Shown one piece after another: positions 100 to 5,893 of a stretch of 5,893 nt of DNA. Location of the stretch: the IMG/VR virus record IMGVR_UViG_3300045988_013400; one strand, given 5' to 3'. This DNA comes from a virus. The position numbers were made by a program, and so were the translations under genes. How positions within the stretch are numbered: position 1 is the stretch's first letter; the number at the start of each line of letters is the position of its first letter. A model generated the notes under the pieces. The model was not told where the DNA came from, did no database searches, and saw only the letters and a list, made by a program, of their open reading frames with translations.

Positions 100-662
100 C
101 TCGTAAAGTATCCGTTGTGTTGTATCTTGTATAGGTGTTTTAGGTCTGTTGGCTGCCATCCATACAGTATCATGTGATAATGTGGTCTTGCTGTCTGTTC
201 TCCGTACTCTCCCGCTACAAAATAGCGTAATTTGCCCCTATAAGCCTTTCTGAGACGTTTTAAGAATTTTTGAATGTCAGTATATAGCAACGTTTGGACG
301 CTTTCAGGGCGCTTCTCTCCCGGTTTCCAGACGTATTGCACTTTTCGCATGATTTCACCTGTTTTTACTATCATGCCCGGTACGTGATTATCATCATAGG
401 TTAGTGTAATAAACCAGACTTGCTCTTTTGGATAATCTCGTGCTTCTAATTCTATTCGTGTTGTCCAGTCCTCTTTTTGTCTGATTCTGCATCCGATGCA
501 CTGTCCGCATGGTATTAGCATGACATTTTTTCTGTACATCAGGTCTTCATATTTTAGCTGTTTCCCGCTTATTTCAGAAAAGCGGGCAAGTGAATACACC
601 CGCCCGCTTACGTCTTTATTTTCCGGGTTGTACAGCCTTATTAATGGCTTGTAACAACTCAT
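1..662 (-). CDS. VP4: Replication initiator VP4 (HUH rolling-circle endonuclease), 5' portion. The gene is complement(join(5437..5794,1..662)) on the circle, 339 aa in total.
   Basis: Absent from the ORF track because it runs off the window edge. Hand translation of the - strand in the frame of ORF 5437..5868 is open from the ATG at 662..660, with an in-frame TGA just upstream at 674..672. It reads MSCYKPLIRLYNPENKDVSGRVYSLARFSEISGKQLKYEDLMYRKNVMLIPCGQCIGCRIRQKEDWTTRIELEARDYPKEQVWFITLTYDDNHVPG...ARPHYHMILYGWQPTDLKHLYKIQHNGYFTSEWLANLWG and then joins MGQIQIAQAVPETYRYVAGYVTKK. Motifs seen: CGxCxGC, FITLTY (motif I), HYHMILY (HUH motif II), and YVAGYVTKK (two-tyrosine motif III, compare phiX174 protein A YVAKYVNKK). 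The ATG overlaps the VP2 stop as ATGA, and a GGGTGAT Shine-Dalgarno lies 8 nt upstream. Confidence 0.92.
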   Translation of the reverse strand, partial: MSCYKPLIRLYNPENKDVSGRVYSLARFSEISGKQLKYEDLMYRKNVMLIPCGQCIGCRIRQKEDWTTRIELEARDYPKEQVWFITLTYDDNHVPGMIVKTGEIMRKVQYVWKPGEKRPESVQTLLYTDIQKFLKRLRKAYRGKLRYFVAGEYGEQTARPHYHMILYGWQPTDLKHLYKIQHNGYFTSEWLANLWGMGQIQIAQAVPETYRYVAGYVTKK

Positions 663-1528
663 TTTAAATAATCACCCGGCTTTCGTTTTTCTCCGTATGA
701 CCCGGTTTTGTCTTGCGGTTTCATACTTCTGCTTTGTTCTGTGCCTTTTTGTTTTCCTACTTTATCTGTTGCCTTTGTGATGGCTTTGCTTGTGTTGTCT
801 TGGACTTCTGTAAGTGCTTTTTGCAGTCCGTACGGTGACATATGCGTTTCGCTAAGCATTTGTTGCCAGCTTTGCGCAGCGTTGTACCAGTCGCTTTGAC
901 TCCAGCTTGAACTTGAGTATGCATTTGGTACAAACCCGCCGCTTCTGCTTACTCCTAGTGCGCTGCTGCTTGCAAGCCCCATACTTGCCCCGCTGATTGT
1001 TCCTGCTGACCCGCCCGGTGTGCTTGCTCCACCGTTTGCAAATGCTAAGATTGGGTTAAGCCCTGCTTTTTTCATATCTTCAACGGCTCTTTGATATGCT
1101 GTACTGCTCATGTGCTCTTGCCATTCGCGGTTTGCTAGTGCTTCTGCACTGTTGTAGTTCATTGCTACGCTGTTTTCGATGTGGTTATATACGCCCTGCA
1201 TGATTGCTTGTAAGGTGTTATACCCCATTTGTTTAAGCATACTTTGACTGTTGTATTTGCCTTGCATGGCAGCTTCTTGCCCTTGGTATGCGTATGCCTT
1301 TTTAAGCCAGTCATCAACTTGCTGTATGTTTGTTCCTGATTGGCTTCCGCTCTCGGAGTGTCCACCGCCTTGGCTTATGCTGCCGCCTTGGCTTTGGCTG
1401 CCGCCTTCTTGACCCCATCCGCCAAATGCTCCGGCGATCTGTTTACCAGCGTTTGCAAATGTTCCAACTGTGCTTGCAATGTTTCCGGCCACGTTGAGCG
1501 CTGTTAAGAATCCTGATAATCCCGCCAT
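659..1528 (-). CDS. VP2: Minor capsid / DNA pilot protein VP2 (289 aa)
   Basis: ATG-started ORF immediately downstream of VP1. It carries the gokushovirus VP2 signature EWQEHMSSTAYQRAVEDMKKAGLNPILA, a hydrophobic/Gly-rich N-terminus, a GGSxSQ low-complexity repeat and a basic C-terminus. The stop TGA (661..659) overlaps the Rep ATG. Confidence 0.85.
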   Translation of the reverse strand: MAGLSGFLTALNVAGNIASTVGTFANAGKQIAGAFGGWGQEGGSQSQGGSISQGGGHSESGSQSGTNIQQVDDWLKKAYAYQGQEAAMQGKYNSQSMLKQMGYNTLQAIMQGVYNHIENSVAMNYNSAEALANREWQEHMSSTAYQRAVEDMKKAGLNPILAFANGGASTPGGSAGTISGASMGLASSSALGVSRSGGFVPNAYSSSSWSQSDWYNAAQSWQQMLSETHMSPYGLQKALTEVQDNTSKAITKATDKVGKQKGTEQSRSMKPQDKTGSYGEKRKPGDYLK

Positions 1529-1567: not shown

Positions 1568-3250
1568 TTACAGTTTGTACAAGCCCGGTACGCTGTACAG
1601 TGGCATCCGTCTTGTGGTTTTGTTTGCTACTCGGATAGCTCCGAAAAATTGCGGTTCGTTCTCTACGATCAATGTCCTTGCGATTTCTTTTTTTCCTTCT
1701 GCCATCCACTCTTGCGATAGCATCGGCACGGTTGAATAGTTGTCGGCATAGTGCCAGAAATCTAATGTACCACTCGCGTTACTTCGCATTTTGCCAGATA
1801 CTCGATTCGGTTTCATTCTGTAGTCTGCCCATGCTTCTTGATAACCAAATGTTTCTTCATCTGTCGTATTGCCTGTGAGCATGATTTCTTTCTTTTTTAC
1901 CGGCTGCTCGCCAATATTTGCAAATTGAGGCACGTAATAGTCCAGTCTGTCCGTTCTGCTCCAGAAACGTTCAAGTCCCTGCTGGTACGAGTGATTGTGT
2001 CTCACGCAACAGACGCCGATTACAAAGCCGTGCTCCTCGAAAGATTTTGTGAAACTGCTTTCATTGATTGGCGTTACTGACATTGCGCCAGTTTCGCCGA
2101 TCGGCGTATTCTCGTTGGTCTGCTGTCCGCTGGTCTGTACGATCTGGTTAATATTGACGTGGTATCTGCCACCGCCAAGATATTCCGGCACTTGTACGGT
2201 TTTATCCGAGATAGTTACATCCCACAGTGCTTGTACCTGTTCGCGGTATCTGCTGCCACCTCTTGCAAGTGCTTCATAGTACTGCTGCACTGCTACGGCT
2301 TTTCTCAGTTCGTTAATGGTTGTTGCAGTTACTGCGCCGATGTCTGCATACATCCACCCTCCCGCGCCTAATTCGTTGGATATTTTTTCTTTTCCGGTAA
2401 ACTGCATCGCTTTTTTTTCTCCGGGTGCTCCTGTGGCATTTGTATAGCTCAGAGAGCCCGGCACGTCTGCACCGCTAGCGGCTACTACCATTTCTACCGG
2501 TCCTTTGAAATTCATGTAAGTTCCATTAGGGTCCCCTAATCTGATAGGTGCATTTCCTGTCATCGGCAGTGCCACTTCCGGCCCGCGTTGAGGATATGGC
2601 AAACAGCTTGTGAAGTAGTCGTGGAATTTGTTTACCGGTAAACATCTTCCCCCTGTTATTGCGTTTTTTAGCGCTTCTTCTATCGTTTCGCTTTGGGTGA
2701 TTTCCGTGTATGAAACGTCGCTGTCGTCTGTTTTGAATACTGCTGCATTACCTACGTTTTCGTCTCGGAAATATTCGTTCCATATTTTGACGTATGCTCG
2801 TACGGGCAGCGCGTTAATTTTGAAAGTCTTGTTTACTTTTGTCGGCACTCCCATATAGTCGAGAATTGAACCTTCCATTGGATATGTTGGATTGTTGTCG
2901 TTGCTTACTCTGATTTCTGGTACTTTATAGGTTTTTTCTGGCGACCATGGTCTTTCTTCTACTTCTCCCATGAATTGTTTGAAATGATCCCATAAGATTC
3001 TATTTGGACAGTAGAAATAGTAGAAGTCAATGAATGCATCGTCCATCACCGGATATTTTGGCGTTGTCATTCGGATGATCGCTGACGTGTCCACACTAAA
3101 TGTGTCGCCCGGCAATACTTCGTCTACGTAAAACGGAATCAATTTGCCGGAATCAAACGTTGTTAAAATCGTCTGGTCGCGGTTAAACCGTGTCCGGCTT
3201 GCTCTCATTTCTGGAATCTGGTTGAAGTGCCGTTCATTGTTTCGATTCAC
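1568..3250 (-). CDS. VP1: Major capsid protein VP1 (560 aa, phiX174 F-protein homologue, gokushovirus-size)
   Basis: The N-terminus HFNQIPEMRASRTRFNRDQTILTTFDSGKLIPFYVDEVLPGDTF is the canonical Microviridae capsid N-terminal signature. The 560-aa length, with a long central insertion, matches Gokushovirinae rather than the ~426-aa phiX-like F. The start is GTG at 3250..3248, preceded by AGGAG (3262..3258) at a 7-nt spacing. The next in-frame ATG would remove the conserved HFNQIP segment. Confidence 0.95.
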   Translation of the reverse strand: MNRNNERHFNQIPEMRASRTRFNRDQTILTTFDSGKLIPFYVDEVLPGDTFSVDTSAIIRMTTPKYPVMDDAFIDFYYFYCPNRILWDHFKQFMGEVEERPWSPEKTYKVPEIRVSNDNNPTYPMEGSILDYMGVPTKVNKTFKINALPVRAYVKIWNEYFRDENVGNAAVFKTDDSDVSYTEITQSETIEEALKNAITGGRCLPVNKFHDYFTSCLPYPQRGPEVALPMTGNAPIRLGDPNGTYMNFKGPVEMVVAASGADVPGSLSYTNATGAPGEKKAMQFTGKEKISNELGAGGWMYADIGAVTATTINELRKAVAVQQYYEALARGGSRYREQVQALWDVTISDKTVQVPEYLGGGRYHVNINQIVQTSGQQTNENTPIGETGAMSVTPINESSFTKSFEEHGFVIGVCCVRHNHSYQQGLERFWSRTDRLDYYVPQFANIGEQPVKKKEIMLTGNTTDEETFGYQEAWADYRMKPNRVSGKMRSNASGTLDFWHYADNYSTVPMLSQEWMAEGKKEIARTLIVENEPQFFGAIRVANKTTRRMPLYSVPGLYKL

Positions 3251-3254
3251 TTTT

Positions 3255-3671
3255 TTACTCCTTTTCCGTCATTTTGCTATTCGTTTGCGCCTGATCGGTG
3301 CTTTTTGCATTGTCTGTTTTCGTCATTTTAGACAATTCTTTAAGCTTCATTGCGTTTGCTTGTGCGGTCGCAATCATGCGGTGATACTCATGAATGTTTT
3401 GCGGAAATTCGGTGATGTCCACTTCTGCCCCCGTCATTGCTCCTTCGGATAAGCTTTTAAGGAACTGCGGGTCAAAACTAGCTTTTCGGACGATGCTTTT
3501 GATATCACATTCGTCTGCATAGCTTTCGATCTCCTGTTGAATGTCGATCGGTGCTGTTTCTTGGAGTACTTCTTCCCCGTTTTCGTCTTTCACCCAGACG
3601 TATTGTTTCCGGAATTTTTCTCCGCTTTCAGAAAAGAAGGGCTTTCGCCCTTCTTCATATCGTTTATTCAT
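3255..3671 (-). CDS. VP3: Putative internal scaffolding protein (VP3-like), 138 aa from the ATG at 3671
   Basis: Lies directly upstream of VP1. It is acidic and helical, with ADECDIKSIVRKASFDP resembling the ...CDIN.I..RF... core of gokushovirus VP3 as I recall it. The track start at 3710 is a TTG. The ATG at 3671..3669 has GGGAGGG (3686..3680) upstream and overlaps the preceding gene's stop (ATGAATAA). The family assignment rests on a remembered motif and on gene position only. Confidence 0.55.
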   Translation of the reverse strand: MNKRYEEGRKPFFSESGEKFRKQYVWVKDENGEEVLQETAPIDIQQEIESYADECDIKSIVRKASFDPQFLKSLSEGAMTGAEVDITEFPQNIHEYHRMIATAQANAMKLKELSKMTKTDNAKSTDQAQTNSKMTEKE

Positions 3672-3903
3672 GCGGCTTGCCCTCCCAGACTTTTTCGTTG
3701 TCGTTGACAAATTCGCCGTTTTCGTCGTTGAATTTTGCTAACTTATAGCCGGTATAATCTTCCGGCGACTGCCCTACAAAGGTTTTTTCGTCCTTTGCCA
3801 TTACATTGCACATTCTTGCAAACGTTGCGTTGTTCTTATTCTCGCCTACCCATGCATAGCATTTTGCTACGTTGTCCCATAGTCCATAATACAGATGCTC
3901 CAT
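3664..3903 (-). CDS. VP5: VP5-like non-structural protein (79 aa from the ATG at 3903), possibly involved in ssDNA synthesis/packaging
   Basis: MEHLYYGLWDNVAKCY...ATFARMC...SPEDYTGYKLAKFNDENGEFV follows the pattern I associate with chlamydiaphage/gokushovirus VP5 (short N-terminal beta strand ..D.KA..y, A.R.F, PEDY.LY.iG.fDd.tG.f). The track start at 3936 is a GTG that overlaps the ORF8-like gene. The ATG at 3903..3901 has AAGGA at a 7-nt spacing. Confidence 0.55.
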   Translation of the reverse strand: MEHLYYGLWDNVAKCYAWVGENKNNATFARMCNVMAKDEKTFVGQSPEDYTGYKLAKFNDENGEFVNDNEKVWEGKPHE

Positions 3904-4256: not shown

Positions 4257-4379
4257 TTACTCCTTTTTTTCTTCGTTGATACTGTCGTGCAGTGCATGAT
4301 AGATTTCGTCAAGCTTTTCGAGAATCTGCATCATAATGCGAATTGCCTGCTTGACGTCTTTAATGCTGATTAGTGCCAT
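4257..4379 (-). CDS. Hypothetical small protein, 40 aa (MALISIKDVKQAIRIMMQILEKLDEIYHALHDSINEEKKE)
   Basis: The track ORF 4257..4451 starts at a GTG inside the peptidase gene. The ATG at 4379..4377 lies 1 nt after the peptidase TAA and is preceded by GGGGG (4390..4386) at a 6-nt spacing. The product looks like a single amphipathic helix. It is short, so the coding call rests on the Shine-Dalgarno site and the tight packing. Confidence 0.45.
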   Translation of the reverse strand: MALISIKDVKQAIRIMMQILEKLDEIYHALHDSINEEKKE

Positions 4380-4773: not shown

Positions 4774-4810
4774 GCCCTTTACTCCTTTCGTTTTCTGCAA
4801 TTCACATTGC

Positions 4811-4848
4811 ATTATAAGTATTTTATCATTTGTCAAGTCTTTTTTCAA
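4811..4848 (-). promoter_or_regulatory. Sigma-70/SigA-type promoter(s) driving the whole - strand gene string
   Basis: The - strand reads TTGAAA (4848..4843), a 17-nt spacer ending in TGa, then TAAAAT (4825..4820), which is a good -35 / extended -10 arrangement. Nested within it are a perfect TTGACA (4836..4831) and a perfect TATAAT (4816..4811), but these have only a 14-nt spacer. An AT-rich UP-like tract lies upstream (4849..4873). The first gene's Shine-Dalgarno and ATG follow about 30-45 nt downstream. Confidence 0.55.
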
Positions 4849-4873
4849 TATTTGTAATTATATTGTAATATTC

Positions 4874-4924
4874 ACTGTGCAAACTGGCAAGGTTGCCGCA
4901 GGCAATTTTGCCTTTTTGCACAGT
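4874..4924. repeat. 51-nt near-perfect palindrome (long hairpin/cruciform) built from alternating GGCAA/TTGCC pentamers
   Basis: Positions 4874..4897 pair with 4924..4901 around a 3-nt loop (GCA, 4898..4900). Of 24 positions, 20 are Watson-Crick pairs, 2 are G.T (4891/4907, 4892/4906) and 2 are mismatches (4884/4914, 4885/4913). Pentamers: GGCAA at 4886 and 4901, TTGCC at 4893 and 4908. Confidence 0.9.
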
Positions 4925-4925
4925 T

Positions 4926-4940
4926 CTTGCCGTAGGCAAG
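4926..4940. repeat. Second TTGCC-N3-GGCAA palindrome (cTTGCCgtaGGCAAg)
   Basis: A 6-bp stem with a 3-nt loop. It has the same 13-bp TTGCC-N3-GGCAA core as 4893..4905, and the two centres are 34 bp apart. Confidence 0.85.
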
Positions 4941-4953
4941 TTGTTAGCTCACT

Positions 4954-4991
4954 CTAACCGGTGCCCAGTTAGTCAGGCTAACCGTTTTCAA
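4954..4991 (+). repeat. 38-nt direct repeat copy A: one 24-nt hairpin unit ctaaccggtgcccagttagtcagg followed by ctaaccgttttcaa
   Basis: Identical at every base to 5391..5428. The unit folds as CTAACcGG-tgc-CCaGTTAG (8-bp stem with one mismatch). Confidence 0.95.
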
Positions 4992-5105
4992 AGTTTTCAA
5001 CACTTTCAACACTTTCAACAGGTTTTCAACAAAATGTTGCACAATGATTTTCGTCATTTTGACGAACTTTCAACAATTCAACAAGTTTTCAACAAAACTT
5101 TCAAC
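4986..5105. repeat. Iteron array: TTTCAAC(A) direct repeats in two clusters flanking a small hairpin
   Basis: Exact TTTCAAC begins at 4995, 5004, 5013 and 5024 (spacings 9, 9, 11) and at 5068, 5087 and 5099, with variants at 4986 (TTTCAAA) and 5076 (ATTCAAC). Outlying exact copies begin at 5153 and 5423. All are in the same orientation, and I found no exact copy in the coding regions by eye. Between the clusters, TTCGTC-atttt-GACGAA (5050..5066) forms a 6-bp hairpin. Confidence 0.9.
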
Positions 5106-5207
5106 AGCATTTTTTGCCTTTTATTTACGCTTTAGCGTTAAATTTTAGTACTTTTCAACTTTTCCACTACCCCTACTACTACTTCTACAACAAGTTAATA
5201 TTATATT

Positions 5208-5250
5208 GCGCGTGCGCGCGTGCGCGCTATCGCGCGTGTGCGCACGTGTA
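5208..5250. repeat. GC-rich alternating purine-pyrimidine block (Z-DNA-prone and self-complementary)
   Basis: gcgcgtgcgcgcgtgcgcgc (5208..5227) and cgcgcgtgtgcgcacgtgta (5231..5250) are each 20 nt of perfect Pu/Py alternation, separated by tat. Positions 5208..5248 are 78% GC (32 of 41) in an AT-rich genome. CGCGC (5223..5227) pairs with GCGCG (5232..5236) around the loop tatc, and the stem extends to 5216/5243 only through three G.T pairs on the + strand. Confidence 0.9.
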
Positions 5251-5302
5251 AATTAGATTATTTGATGGACAGAATAGTCTGATACATGGAGCCTTTAGAC
5301 GA

Positions 5303-5338
5303 CAAAAGCCCAGTACCTTACTTGATAGGTACTGGGCT
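5303..5338 (-). terminator. Rho-independent terminator downstream of Rep (end of the genome-length - strand transcription unit)
   Basis: The - strand reads AGCCCAGTACCT-atcaagta-AGGTACTGGGCT, a 12-bp perfect stem (5338..5327 pairing with 5318..5307) with an 8-nt loop, followed immediately by TTTG TCGTC. The T-run is short (4 T counting the last stem base). Confidence 0.6.
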
Positions 5339-5366
5339 AGGTGACACCATTTTCTAGTTAGTTAGA

Positions 5367-5428
5367 CTAACCGGTGCCCAGTTAGTCAGGCTAACCGGTG
5401 CCCAGTTAGTCAGGCTAACCGTTTTCAA
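5367..5428 (+). repeat. Tandem 2 x 24-nt hairpin units plus ctaaccgttttcaa. The last 38 nt (5391..5428) are direct repeat copy B.
   Basis: ctaaccggtgcccagttagtcagg occurs at 5367..5390 and 5391..5414, then ctaaccgttttcaa at 5415..5428. The array lies in the 3' UTR between the Rep stop (5437) and the terminator. Confidence 0.95.
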
Positions 5429-5436
5429 CGATATTG

Positions 5437-5893
5437 TTAAAGTGTCCCCCTCTTCTTCATCTGCTTCTTTATCACTCTTTCTTTTGTCTTACATTGCTCT
5501 GCAAAGTCTGCATTTTCATACTTAAGTCGGTTCTCTGCTATGACTGCCGCTTGTCTGTTCTGTTTAATTCTCCACAATCTTTGTGGGTTTTCAGCTTCCA
5601 TCATTTTTTCATAATAGCGCGGAATTTGTGCGCGTTTGCCGTTTGTGCATTGGATATATCCTTGCCGCCAGATTTCTTCTTTGTGCTCTTGGTAATAGTG
5701 ATCGCCTAAACCCGGTTTTAGGCTCATGCAAGCGAATGGTTTTGCTTGTCCTAGTTCGTAGTATGCGTTTGCTTTTTGACCGTCTATCTCATACATTTTT
5801 TTTGTGACGTATCCTGCAACATATCTATATGTTTCTGGCACTGCTTGTGCTATCTGTATTTGACCCATGCCCCATAGGTTCGCTAGCCATTCA
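5437..5893 (-). CDS. VP4: Replication initiator VP4, 3' portion (the C-terminal 119 codons plus stop are unique; 5795..5893 duplicates 1..99)
   Basis: ORF 5437..5868 translates as MGQIQIAQAVPETYRYVAGYVTKKMYEIDG.... The frame stays open upstream to the window end and continues at position 100 onward. The stop is TAA at 5439..5437. The track's M at 5868 is internal, not the true start. Confidence 0.92.
   Translation of the reverse strand, partial: EWLANLWGMGQIQIAQAVPETYRYVAGYVTKKMYEIDGQKANAYYELGQAKPFACMSLKPGLGDHYYQEHKEEIWRQGYIQCTNGKRAQIPRYYEKMMEAENPQRLWRIKQNRQAAVIAENRLKYENADFAEQCKTKERVIKKQMKKRGTL
5795..5893. repeat. Terminal overlap copy B (identical to 1..99)
   Basis: See the feature at 1..99. 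Confidence 0.95.

Follow-up and report, generated by a model that had tools for sequence, protein, structure and literature searches.

A strand-selected GC hairpin beside a candidate Rep nick site in a gokushovirus-like microvirus, and its possible role as a single-strand origin

What does a GC-rich island of alternating purines and pyrimidines do in the one large non-coding region of a small single-stranded DNA (ssDNA) phage? The question is raised by IMG/VR virus record IMGVR_UViG_3300045988_013400, here analysed over its whole length of 5893 bases (the window); the first 99 bases recur at the end, making this a complete circular genome of 5794 nt. The virus is a gokushovirus-like microvirus of the human gut, every gene of which is encoded on the window minus strand (the coding strand below), and its single large non-coding region (~4775-5436) houses the island. 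A sequence-only reading had proposed that the island could be an origin hairpin or a folded, dif-like phage attachment site (attP), with a Z-DNA element as a further alternative. We posit that it is a structure-selected hairpin in a rolling-circle origin region and acts there as a single-strand origin (sso, or ssi), a role we take as a serious working hypothesis while stopping just short of expecting it to prove right. We lay out first the strand on which the island folds, then the neighbouring hairpin that makes such a role plausible.

The island and the strand on which it folds

5207..5250, plus strand: the GC island, an imperfect hairpin with arms at 5207-5227 and 5231-5250 and a central break or loop at ~5227-5230 (CTAT).
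5197..5206: an AT-rich spacer between the island and an invariant 12-mer, variable in sequence and always present at this place in relatives.

Both tracts are perfect purine/pyrimidine alternations, as had been read from the letters, the first being 21 nt long (one more than was noted then) and the second 20 nt. The other short motifs quoted in that reading are likewise found where it placed them. Their G+C content reaches 80% (32/40 over two 20-nt tracts) and that of 5207-5250 is 73%, compared with 38% in the remaining non-coding region and 44% in the whole genome, which had been called AT-rich and is hence not strongly so. The longest alternating run in dinucleotide-preserving shuffles (n=500) averages 13.2 nt and is 20 nt or longer in 3/500; the window has two runs of at least 20 nt, 3 nt apart. 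AT-rich flanks are present (5192-5207 and 5249-5264), but these "mirror" flanks pair weakly with each other, and relatives do not conserve the right one. The same non-coding region, letter for letter, recurs in an independent Human Microbiome Project assembly (L199), so a one-off artefact of assembly can be dismissed.

The two strands of the island do not fold alike. The proposed CGCGC-tatc-GCGCG core is recovered at 5223-5236, and folding both strands bore out the accompanying suggestion that the G.T pairs of one strand become C.A mismatches on the other: the plus strand forms an unbroken stem of 19-21 bp in which 5 pairs are G.T and one is T-A (-20.9 kcal/mol), whereas the coding strand yields a pair of short helices that flank an internal loop of C.A mismatches (-16.3 kcal/mol). 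The 196-nt context of the island has a folding z-score of -6.5. For a comparison across relatives, which here and below are related metagenomic assemblies whose counts are not independent events, we folded both strands of 105 loci (64 distinct islands), each set in the orientation given by the adjacent CTTGATAG motif. The CTTGATAG strand, equivalent to the window plus strand, contains 923 G-C, 222 G.T and 95 A-T pairs and leaves 66 C's unpaired; the complementary strand has 11 G.T pairs, 399 unpaired A's and 309 unpaired C's. Mean stability is -25.4 kcal/mol on the plus strand versus -20.3 kcal/mol on the other, and against alternation-preserving shuffles the plus-strand fold has a mean z of -1.64 while the coding-strand fold is barely stabler than its shuffles (z = -0.76). 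The ratio of CA to TG on the coding strand is 157:41. The rare A's of the plus strand are opposite T at least 59% of the time, whereas the composition of the pyrimidines would give 24%; 95 of them are paired, against at most 66 possible A.C oppositions.

Mutation bias alone is too small to produce this pattern: terminal-branch counts on the coding strand show 1.7-1.9 times as many G>A as C>T changes, and the G.T asymmetry is ~20-fold. The simplest reading of these comparisons is purifying selection on the single-stranded plus-strand fold, under which plus-strand C>T changes would persist as G.T pairs and G>A changes would be purged or compensated.

A role for the duplex rather than the single strand would make the island an element of the double-strand origin (dso) that adopts Z-DNA or a cruciform in the supercoiled replicative form and, by absorbing or sensing stress, aids or regulates Rep nicking or termination. 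Its sequence is suited to Z-DNA, being alternating, CG-rich and longer than 12 bp. In likeness to the Z-DNA-forming (CG)n/(CA)n tracts of supercoiled plasmids, it has two mostly CpG tracts of 20-21 bp, and it adjoins an AT-rich stretch and invariant motifs. With energy parameters attributed to Peck & Wang and Ho et al., a rough B-Z estimate has one tract flipping near sigma -0.043 and both tracts near -0.05 in a 5.8-kb circle, close to native plasmid superhelicity. Alternating (CG)n tracts are, moreover, deletion-prone, and the retention of one would imply selection. At the unrestrained sigma prevailing in vivo (~-0.03), however, the same estimate yields no B-Z transition. The tracts are always split by an out-of-phase break of ~0-4 nt, which costs a Z-Z junction and suits a hairpin loop; a mismatched palindrome would extrude poorly as a cruciform; and lineages in which the adjacent module is inverted (see below) retain the island though it then lies ~210 bp from the AACTTGTTGTAG motif. 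Z-DNA is also insensitive to how CA and TG are shared out between the strands, and so leaves the strand asymmetry unexplained, whereas asymmetric CA/TG together with compensatory A-T pairs points to selection on a single-stranded fold. The earlier call of Z-DNA proneness thus holds as a property of the sequence and fails to explain the strand bias, and we consider a duplex-level function unlikely. Preservation of the alternation does not require Z-DNA, because a (CG)n-like palindrome tolerates transitions only; it is best read as a by-product of drift from an ancestral palindrome of that kind.

GC-rich alternating tracts occupy the equivalent position in 75 of 80 IMG/VR genomes with a Rep 89-96% identical to that of the window. 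Tract length varies from 17 to 28 nt, and the central break of 0-4 nt is A-rich on the coding strand (ATA, GTA, AA, AAA, or none). Relatives with 44-58% identical Rep have islands of like design and other sequence, for example TGCACGCGCACGCGCACG-TAAT-CGCGCACGCGCACGTGCA, and in further groups this position is taken by another hairpin or by none. It is thus the design of the island that is conserved, not its sequence. Nucleotide differences within it are nearly all transitions: the better aligned of two sets (g2) gives 27:2 transitions to transversions in the island versus 156:109 in the flanks (p = 1.7e-4), and the gappier one (g1) 26:13 versus 109:109 (p = 0.06). Two or three extra GC-rich hairpins directly adjoin the island in several lineages (L004, L008, L038, L121).

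Could the island lack a dedicated function altogether, as a self-propagating GC microsatellite or palindrome kept by slippage that serves mainly as a hotspot of recombination and assembly breaks? Tandem Repeats Finder does report a repeat of period 8 with 4.5 copies (unit GCGCGTGC), tract lengths vary, several genomes have no island, and the island is where deletions, insertions, contig ends and the boundary of an inversion accumulate. Against this, a packaging-constrained 5.8-kb virus retains the island at the same place and in the same polarity across 44-96% Rep identity, with transversions depleted relative to the flanks, plus-strand A's facing T far above the 24% expected, and a G.T asymmetry well beyond the ~1.8-fold mutational asymmetry of coding DNA. 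We regard this explanation as improbable.

The neighbouring hairpin and a candidate origin

The island itself does not resemble the nick hairpin of an HUH-type Rep: its loop is variable and 0-4 nt long, which also sets it apart from the phiX174/pC194 nick site. A second hairpin nearby has the expected features.

5307..5338, plus strand: hairpin H1, with a 12-bp stem and the loop TACTTGAT at 5319-5326; candidate Rep nick hairpin (dso).
5317-5328, plus strand: loop context TTACTTGATAGG.
5340..5348, plus strand: GGTGACACC box immediately 3' of H1; relatives conserve it behind their own hairpins.

We consider H1 the best candidate for the Rep nick hairpin on sequence grounds, because it contains the only one of seven CTTG[AT]T sites on both window strands (5321, plus strand) that lies within a strong hairpin, because its loop is invariant, and because cultured gokushoviruses have homologous hairpins. 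Among relatives the loop is TTACTTGATA, which reads T(T)ACTTGATAG on the window plus strand and is followed by GGTGACACC. The stem, perfect over at least 7 bp in at least 130/183 related loci, belongs to at least four unrelated sequence families (AGCCCAGTACC, CTCAGCCAAGTA, GTGGGCCTAATCC, GCGGTATATA). It covaries, with 8/13 pairs altered on both sides and a covariation score of 0.326 versus 0.120 in shuffles (0/500 as high); slid controls collapse. On the minus strand H1 is a terminator-like hairpin after Rep, and most relatives have no T-run following it.

The TTACTTGATA loop matches the nick consensus CTTG^ATA of phiX174 and pC194. Rep_1 plasmids of the pC194 type are nicked at CTTGATA (PMC10378824), and we verified the phiX174 protein A site, CAACTTG^ATA, in NC_001422, whose annotation places the origin at 4306. 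By analogy, the nick in the window would fall between G5324 and A5325 on the plus strand. What H1 shares with the phiX174 origin (CAACTTG^ATATTAATAAC...) and with pC194/pUB110-type dso sequences (CTTG^ATA) is ACTTGATA in its loop. Like phiX174 protein A, the window Rep has an HUH motif and a Y-x-x-x-Y two-tyrosine motif, and both loci have an AT-rich stretch and a GC-rich dyad nearby, the 30-bp origin of phiX174 being followed by CCCCGAAGGGG. The H1 motif differs from that of phiX174 in lying in a non-coding hairpin loop, outside the rep gene and antisense to the genes. A phiX174-type 30-bp origin (CAACTTGATATTAATAACACTATAGACCAC) was not found inside rep; the window shares with it only ACTTGATA in the H1 loop and AACTTG in the 12-mer, both non-coding.

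The three gokushoviruses in culture each have one strong hairpin of the H1 kind in non-coding DNA:

Chp2 hairpin: CTAGCGTATAACAG-TCTACTTGATC-TGTTATACGCTAG-GTGA.
SpV4 hairpin: GGGGCATATA-TTACTTGTTAT-ATATGCCCC.
phiMH2K hairpin: GTTCGGCTAC-GGACCCTACTTGTTGTAA-GTAGCCGAAC.

These hairpins are on the coding strand, whereas H1 is antisense to all genes. On the coding strand the GGTGACACC box becomes GGTGTCA repeats preceding the hairpin; its equivalents are GGTGA in Chp2 and TGACACC after the corresponding hairpin of a further set of genomes (group B). Upstream of the origin-like hairpin of Chp2 (L252, 2811-2900), iteron-like GC blocks GTGCAAAAAA, GCCCAAAAAAAGGGCC and TTGCCCCCAAAA alternate with A-tracts, which suggests that a layout of iterons plus hairpin is general in gokushovirus origins.

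The window has iterons of its own, on the far side of the island.

4985..5168: array of ~10 TTTCAAC/GTTGAAA iterons, detected by repeat finders and conserved across groups.
5050-5066: small central hairpin TTCGTCA-TTT-TGACGAA inside the array.
5173..5196, minus strand: invariant motif AACTTGTTGTAG followed by (GTA)n; the plus strand reads CTACTACTACTT-CTACAACAAGTT.

Iterons and 12-mer form a module of ~213 bp (4985-5196). The coding-strand invariant form of the 12-mer part, AACTTGTTGTAG-NN-GTAGTAGTAG, is exactly conserved in viruses whose Rep is 37-58% identical, and the motif shares the 10-mer ACTTGTTGTA with the hairpin loop of phiMH2K. By analogy with the distant bind locus of pMV158 (PMC1851628), the module may be a Rep "bind" locus. 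It is reversed relative to the genes, H1 and the island in seven close relatives (L008, L027, L034, L037, L061, L064, L192) and in all group B genomes (such as L092, L099 and L102), where it lies 70-90 nt upstream of the Rep start; the lineages with an inverted module keep the island. AACTTG^TTGTAG, on the coding strand of the 12-mer, was initially considered as a nick site for its likeness to phiX174 and to the phiMH2K loop; it was demoted in favour of H1, its orientation flipping between lineages and no hairpin being present there.

The island ends 56 nt 5' of the H1 stem on the same strand, and the distance from its 3' end to CTTGATAG in the H1 loop has a median of 74 nt over the 105 loci. 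In most plasmids that replicate by rolling circle, the sso lies just upstream of the dso; single-strand origins rely on structure more than on sequence (PMC4595007), are active in a single orientation and may be lost, though at a cost (PMC4595007, PMC5714925). If H1 is the dso, the island occupies the place of an sso, just upstream of the nick site. It is non-coding, strongly structured and under selection that is specific to one strand. The island further lies in untranscribed DNA, given a coding-strand promoter at 4848-4820 and the terminator-like hairpin at 5338-5307. We favour the sso role because the island sits in this spacer, upstream of H1, because its structure is kept while its sequence drifts and selection is strand-specific, because several lineages have extra adjoining hairpins, as do multi-hairpin ssDNA origins, and because it behaves as a dispensable, cassette-like unit next to a credible dso. 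The earlier suggestion of a complementary-strand origin or priming signal is thereby supported by position, conservation and strand-specific hairpin selection.

Likeness to known elements of this kind (ssoA/ssoU/ssoT of Gram-positive plasmids, ICEBs1 sso1, phiX174 ssi/PAS, and the G4 hairpins) extends to the strong fold of non-coding ssDNA, the position just upstream of the putative nick site on the proposed displaced strand, drift of the sequence within a retained structure, strand specificity, exchange between relatives, and the addition of further hairpins in some lineages. The island differs in being a palindrome of ~44 nt of alternating CG/TG, whereas the plasmid elements are multi-branched and 150-300 nt long, and the ssoA element CS-6 is absent; in phiX174 and G4, moreover, the complementary-strand origin lies far from the viral-strand origin.

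From the hairpin, its conservation, its selected strand and its position beside H1, all observed directly, we infer a nick site, a displaced strand and priming at the island, as follows. Rep would nick the H1 loop (TTACTTG^ATA) on the plus strand, which would then be displaced and circularised. The island, as the last element turned single-stranded, would fold into its stem of ~20 bp of G-C and G.T pairs, and host RNA polymerase or primase could use this stem to begin complementary-strand synthesis.

This sequence of events has an unusual corollary. The nick-type loop TTACTTGATA and the G.T-tolerant fold of the island are both on the non-coding strand, which raises the possibility that in this clade Rep nicks, displaces and packages the strand antisense to every gene ("negative-sense" Microviridae), with the island as its complementary-strand origin; we find this quite conceivable but incline somewhat against it. 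Fourfold-degenerate sites of the capsid gene in the window and its relatives carry 46-48% A and 11-12% T on the coding strand, so that the non-coding strand is T-rich. Chp2 and SpV4 go in the opposite direction (T 51% and 65%, respectively), yet phiMH2K (A 46%, T 27%) goes in the same direction as the window clade, so this composition is suggestive only. The terminal-branch excess of G>A over C>T on the coding strand goes with the proposal but largely restates base composition and does not independently prove which strand is packaged; the polarity of rare (singleton) variants in VP1 was discarded as a test, its counts being too small and inconsistent between groups. All characterised Microviridae are, to our knowledge, positive-sense, which sets a prior against antisense packaging, and a nick could alternatively fall on the coding strand, at AACTTGTTGTAG. 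If Rep nicks H1 in the way that its relatives nick CTTG^ATA, every member of the clade would package the complement of its mRNAs, with a bearing on ssDNA virome preparation, annotation and quantification.

Several points weigh against an sso at the island. The case is built on comparison of sequences that are related, so that their counts are not independent. Were the coding strand packaged, as it is in all Microviridae characterised so far, the island in it would be the weaker hairpin with C.A mismatches (-16 kcal/mol). A search for the ssoA element CS-6, defined as TAGCGT/A (PMC10378824), found only TAGCGC, on the coding strand of some variants; RS-B was not searched. A hairpin has no need of strict alternation. 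Some apparently complete genomes have no island, which is thus not essential; provided that the contig is real, an essential role is also disfavoured by one close relative (L200) that has neither H1 nor island arm 1. Finally, the second CTTG motif, AACTTGTTGTAG, is an alternative nick site on the opposite strand.

The fold might instead serve in RNA, as a terminator or processing hairpin of an antisense transcript of the plus strand, in which G.T pairs would become G.U pairs. The best hairpin is indeed on that strand, which also has weak promoter-like matches. Neither side of the stem, however, is followed by a U-tract or T-run in the window or its relatives, and a terminator consensus scan did not call the island; the island matches no Rfam family, no conserved plus-strand promoter or open reading frame lies upstream, and in the lineages with an inverted module the upstream sequence differs and the island is unchanged. 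An RNA-level signal is, in our view, very improbable.

With the sso role preferred, the locus offers a concrete and testable origin architecture: a covarying hairpin with a CTTG^ATA loop, a GC hairpin in the position of an sso, and an iteron module. Gokushoviruses are the dominant ssDNA phages of the human gut, and we know of no gokushovirus replication origin that has been mapped. Literature searches returned nothing relevant on these motifs, on Z-DNA in Microviridae or on a gokushovirus nick site.

The attachment-site proposal and rearrangement at the island

The proposal that the island is a dif-like attP, as duplex or as a CTX-type folded hairpin, through which host XerCD would integrate the phage draws on real precedent. 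Enterogokushoviruses integrate via a phage dif motif and XerCD, and microvirus proviruses of Bacteroidetes are flanked by dif-like sites (PMC7062461, PMC3091885). Like the attP of enterogokushovirus EC6098 or the folded attP of CTXphi, the island is a palindromic non-coding element in a small ssDNA phage with no integrase. GTGCGCA, likened to the core of the XerC arm of E. coli dif, is present inside it at 5238-5244, and AGTTAATATTA, likened to the XerD arm, at 5193-5203; identity to E. coli dif reaches 17/28 at 5220 (minus strand).

No test, however, came out in its favour. A position weight matrix built from 11 dif sites, which scores true sites at 21-37 bits, gives the island 1.2 bits, and the genome's best score of 7.6 bits resembles the maximum in shuffles (7.2 +/- 2.8). 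The 17/28 match at the island edge is the genome maximum and lies at chance level over 11.6 kb of sites; identity of the island region to B. subtilis dif is 14/28. Neither the 11-6-11 dif architecture nor the conserved ATAA-N6-TTATG core is present, there being no TTATG or CATAA in 5170-5290, and the stem, alternating CG/TG without dif-like arms, is unlike a CTXphi-type folded attP. The hidden Markov model survey of dif sites by Kirchberger & Ochman lists the nearest GenBank relatives, KX513868, KT264791, KT264792 and KX513877, as "n/a" (no dif site), and the sequence of the island varies freely among relatives, unlike a site matched to a host dif. A search of 185,579 species-representative genomes for an exact 19-base motif gave 16 matches, among which the only microvirus was a free 5.7-kb contig; the contigs of the 120 nearest capsid clusters are no longer than 6.8 kb or are a concatemer, and a first capsid scan likewise found no integrated copy. 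We give integration at this site next to no credence. One contig (L014) had looked like a prophage junction at the island start and was rejected: its flanks encode tailed-phage portal, Mu-F and terminase proteins and an unrelated bacterial gene, and it is a chimeric assembly of microvirus, tailed phage and bacterium that switches at the first island base.

The island is nonetheless a place where genomes and assemblies change, and it behaves as a dispensable, cassette-like unit: L037, L080, group B and some members of the group with 44-47% identical Rep lack it or have a different hairpin in its stead. Breakpoints of rearrangements and contigs cluster at its edges. Contigs L003 and L078 begin or end inside it, a deletion in L005 begins in arm 1, many genomes have a 37-nt hairpin inserted after arm 2, a 213-bp inversion terminates at the island edge, and the close relative L200 has a 390-nt replacement ending exactly between the island arms. 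In this last contig (1-480, 6050-6085), whose capsid is 98% identical, ~390 nt of GC-rich DNA stand in place of H1, the spacer and arm 1; the insert encodes, on the opposite strand and with its own terminator, a 70-aa Cys_rich_KTR protein (PF14205, E = 1.6e-12) of a family that we take to be typical of Firmicutes/Clostridia, and represents either capture of a host gene or a chimeric assembly. Contigs without the island, H1 or the 12-mer (L005, L009, L037, L080, L200) may be defective genomes, chimeras or real variants. Assembly artefacts likewise gather at the island: L006 and L046 are each a fusion of two distinct microviruses, L201 is a concatemer of 1.7 units, and L199 opens with a 20-nt fold-back copy of window 5253-5272. 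For practical purposes, the island is a hotspot of contig breaks and chimeras in microvirus assemblies.

Gene layout and minor features

1568-3250, minus strand: major capsid protein (Phage_F).
659-1528, minus strand: VP2-like protein.
3255-3710, minus strand: Chlamydia-phage-type scaffold protein.
Minus strand: genes for an ORF5-like protein and an M15 peptidase.
662 to 1, then 5794 to 5437, minus strand: Rep/VP4 gene, 339 aa, its 3' part at 5437..5794.
4820..4848, minus strand: sigma-70-type promoter TTGAAA-17-TAAAAT with TG, followed by a visible ribosome-binding site and ATG.
5356..5421: 24-nt repeat AGTTAGTCAGGCTAACCGGTGCCC in 2.8 copies, found by repeat finders, with a further direct copy at 4949-4991.

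The HUH motif of Rep/VP4 is PHYHMILY and its two-tyrosine motif YVAGYVTKK. An exact look-up of the window capsid protein matched no record, and tRNA, tmRNA and Rfam searches of the window returned nothing relevant. The nearest GenBank records are gokushoviruses from human, pig and monkey gut, with KX513868 and MG945514 at 88% identity over 92% of the genome and KT264791 also among the nearest. The promoter serves the gene cluster that begins with the M15 peptidase and bounds the non-transcribed spacer. Promoters of the clade are of the TTGACA/TATAAT type with strong AGGAG ribosome-binding sites, a rather Firmicute-like style that suggests a Firmicute host. L092 (contig CAVKUS010000079.1), a free 5.7-kb contig, is binned into the metagenome-assembled genome "Bacteroides sp. 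CAG:545", which is weak host evidence given those Firmicute-like signals.

Between iterons and promoter, 4874-4924 holds an imperfect 24-nt inverted repeat, called terminator-like on the plus strand over its inner part (4886-4912; GGCAAGGTTGCC-GCA-GGCAATTTTGCC plus TTTTT). The AGTTAGTCAGGCTAACCGGTGCCC copies at 4949-4991 and 5356-5421 bracket the entire origin region. This 24-nt repeat is lineage-specific, common only to the near-identical L199 and L200, and may be a recombination footprint at GTTGAAAAC.

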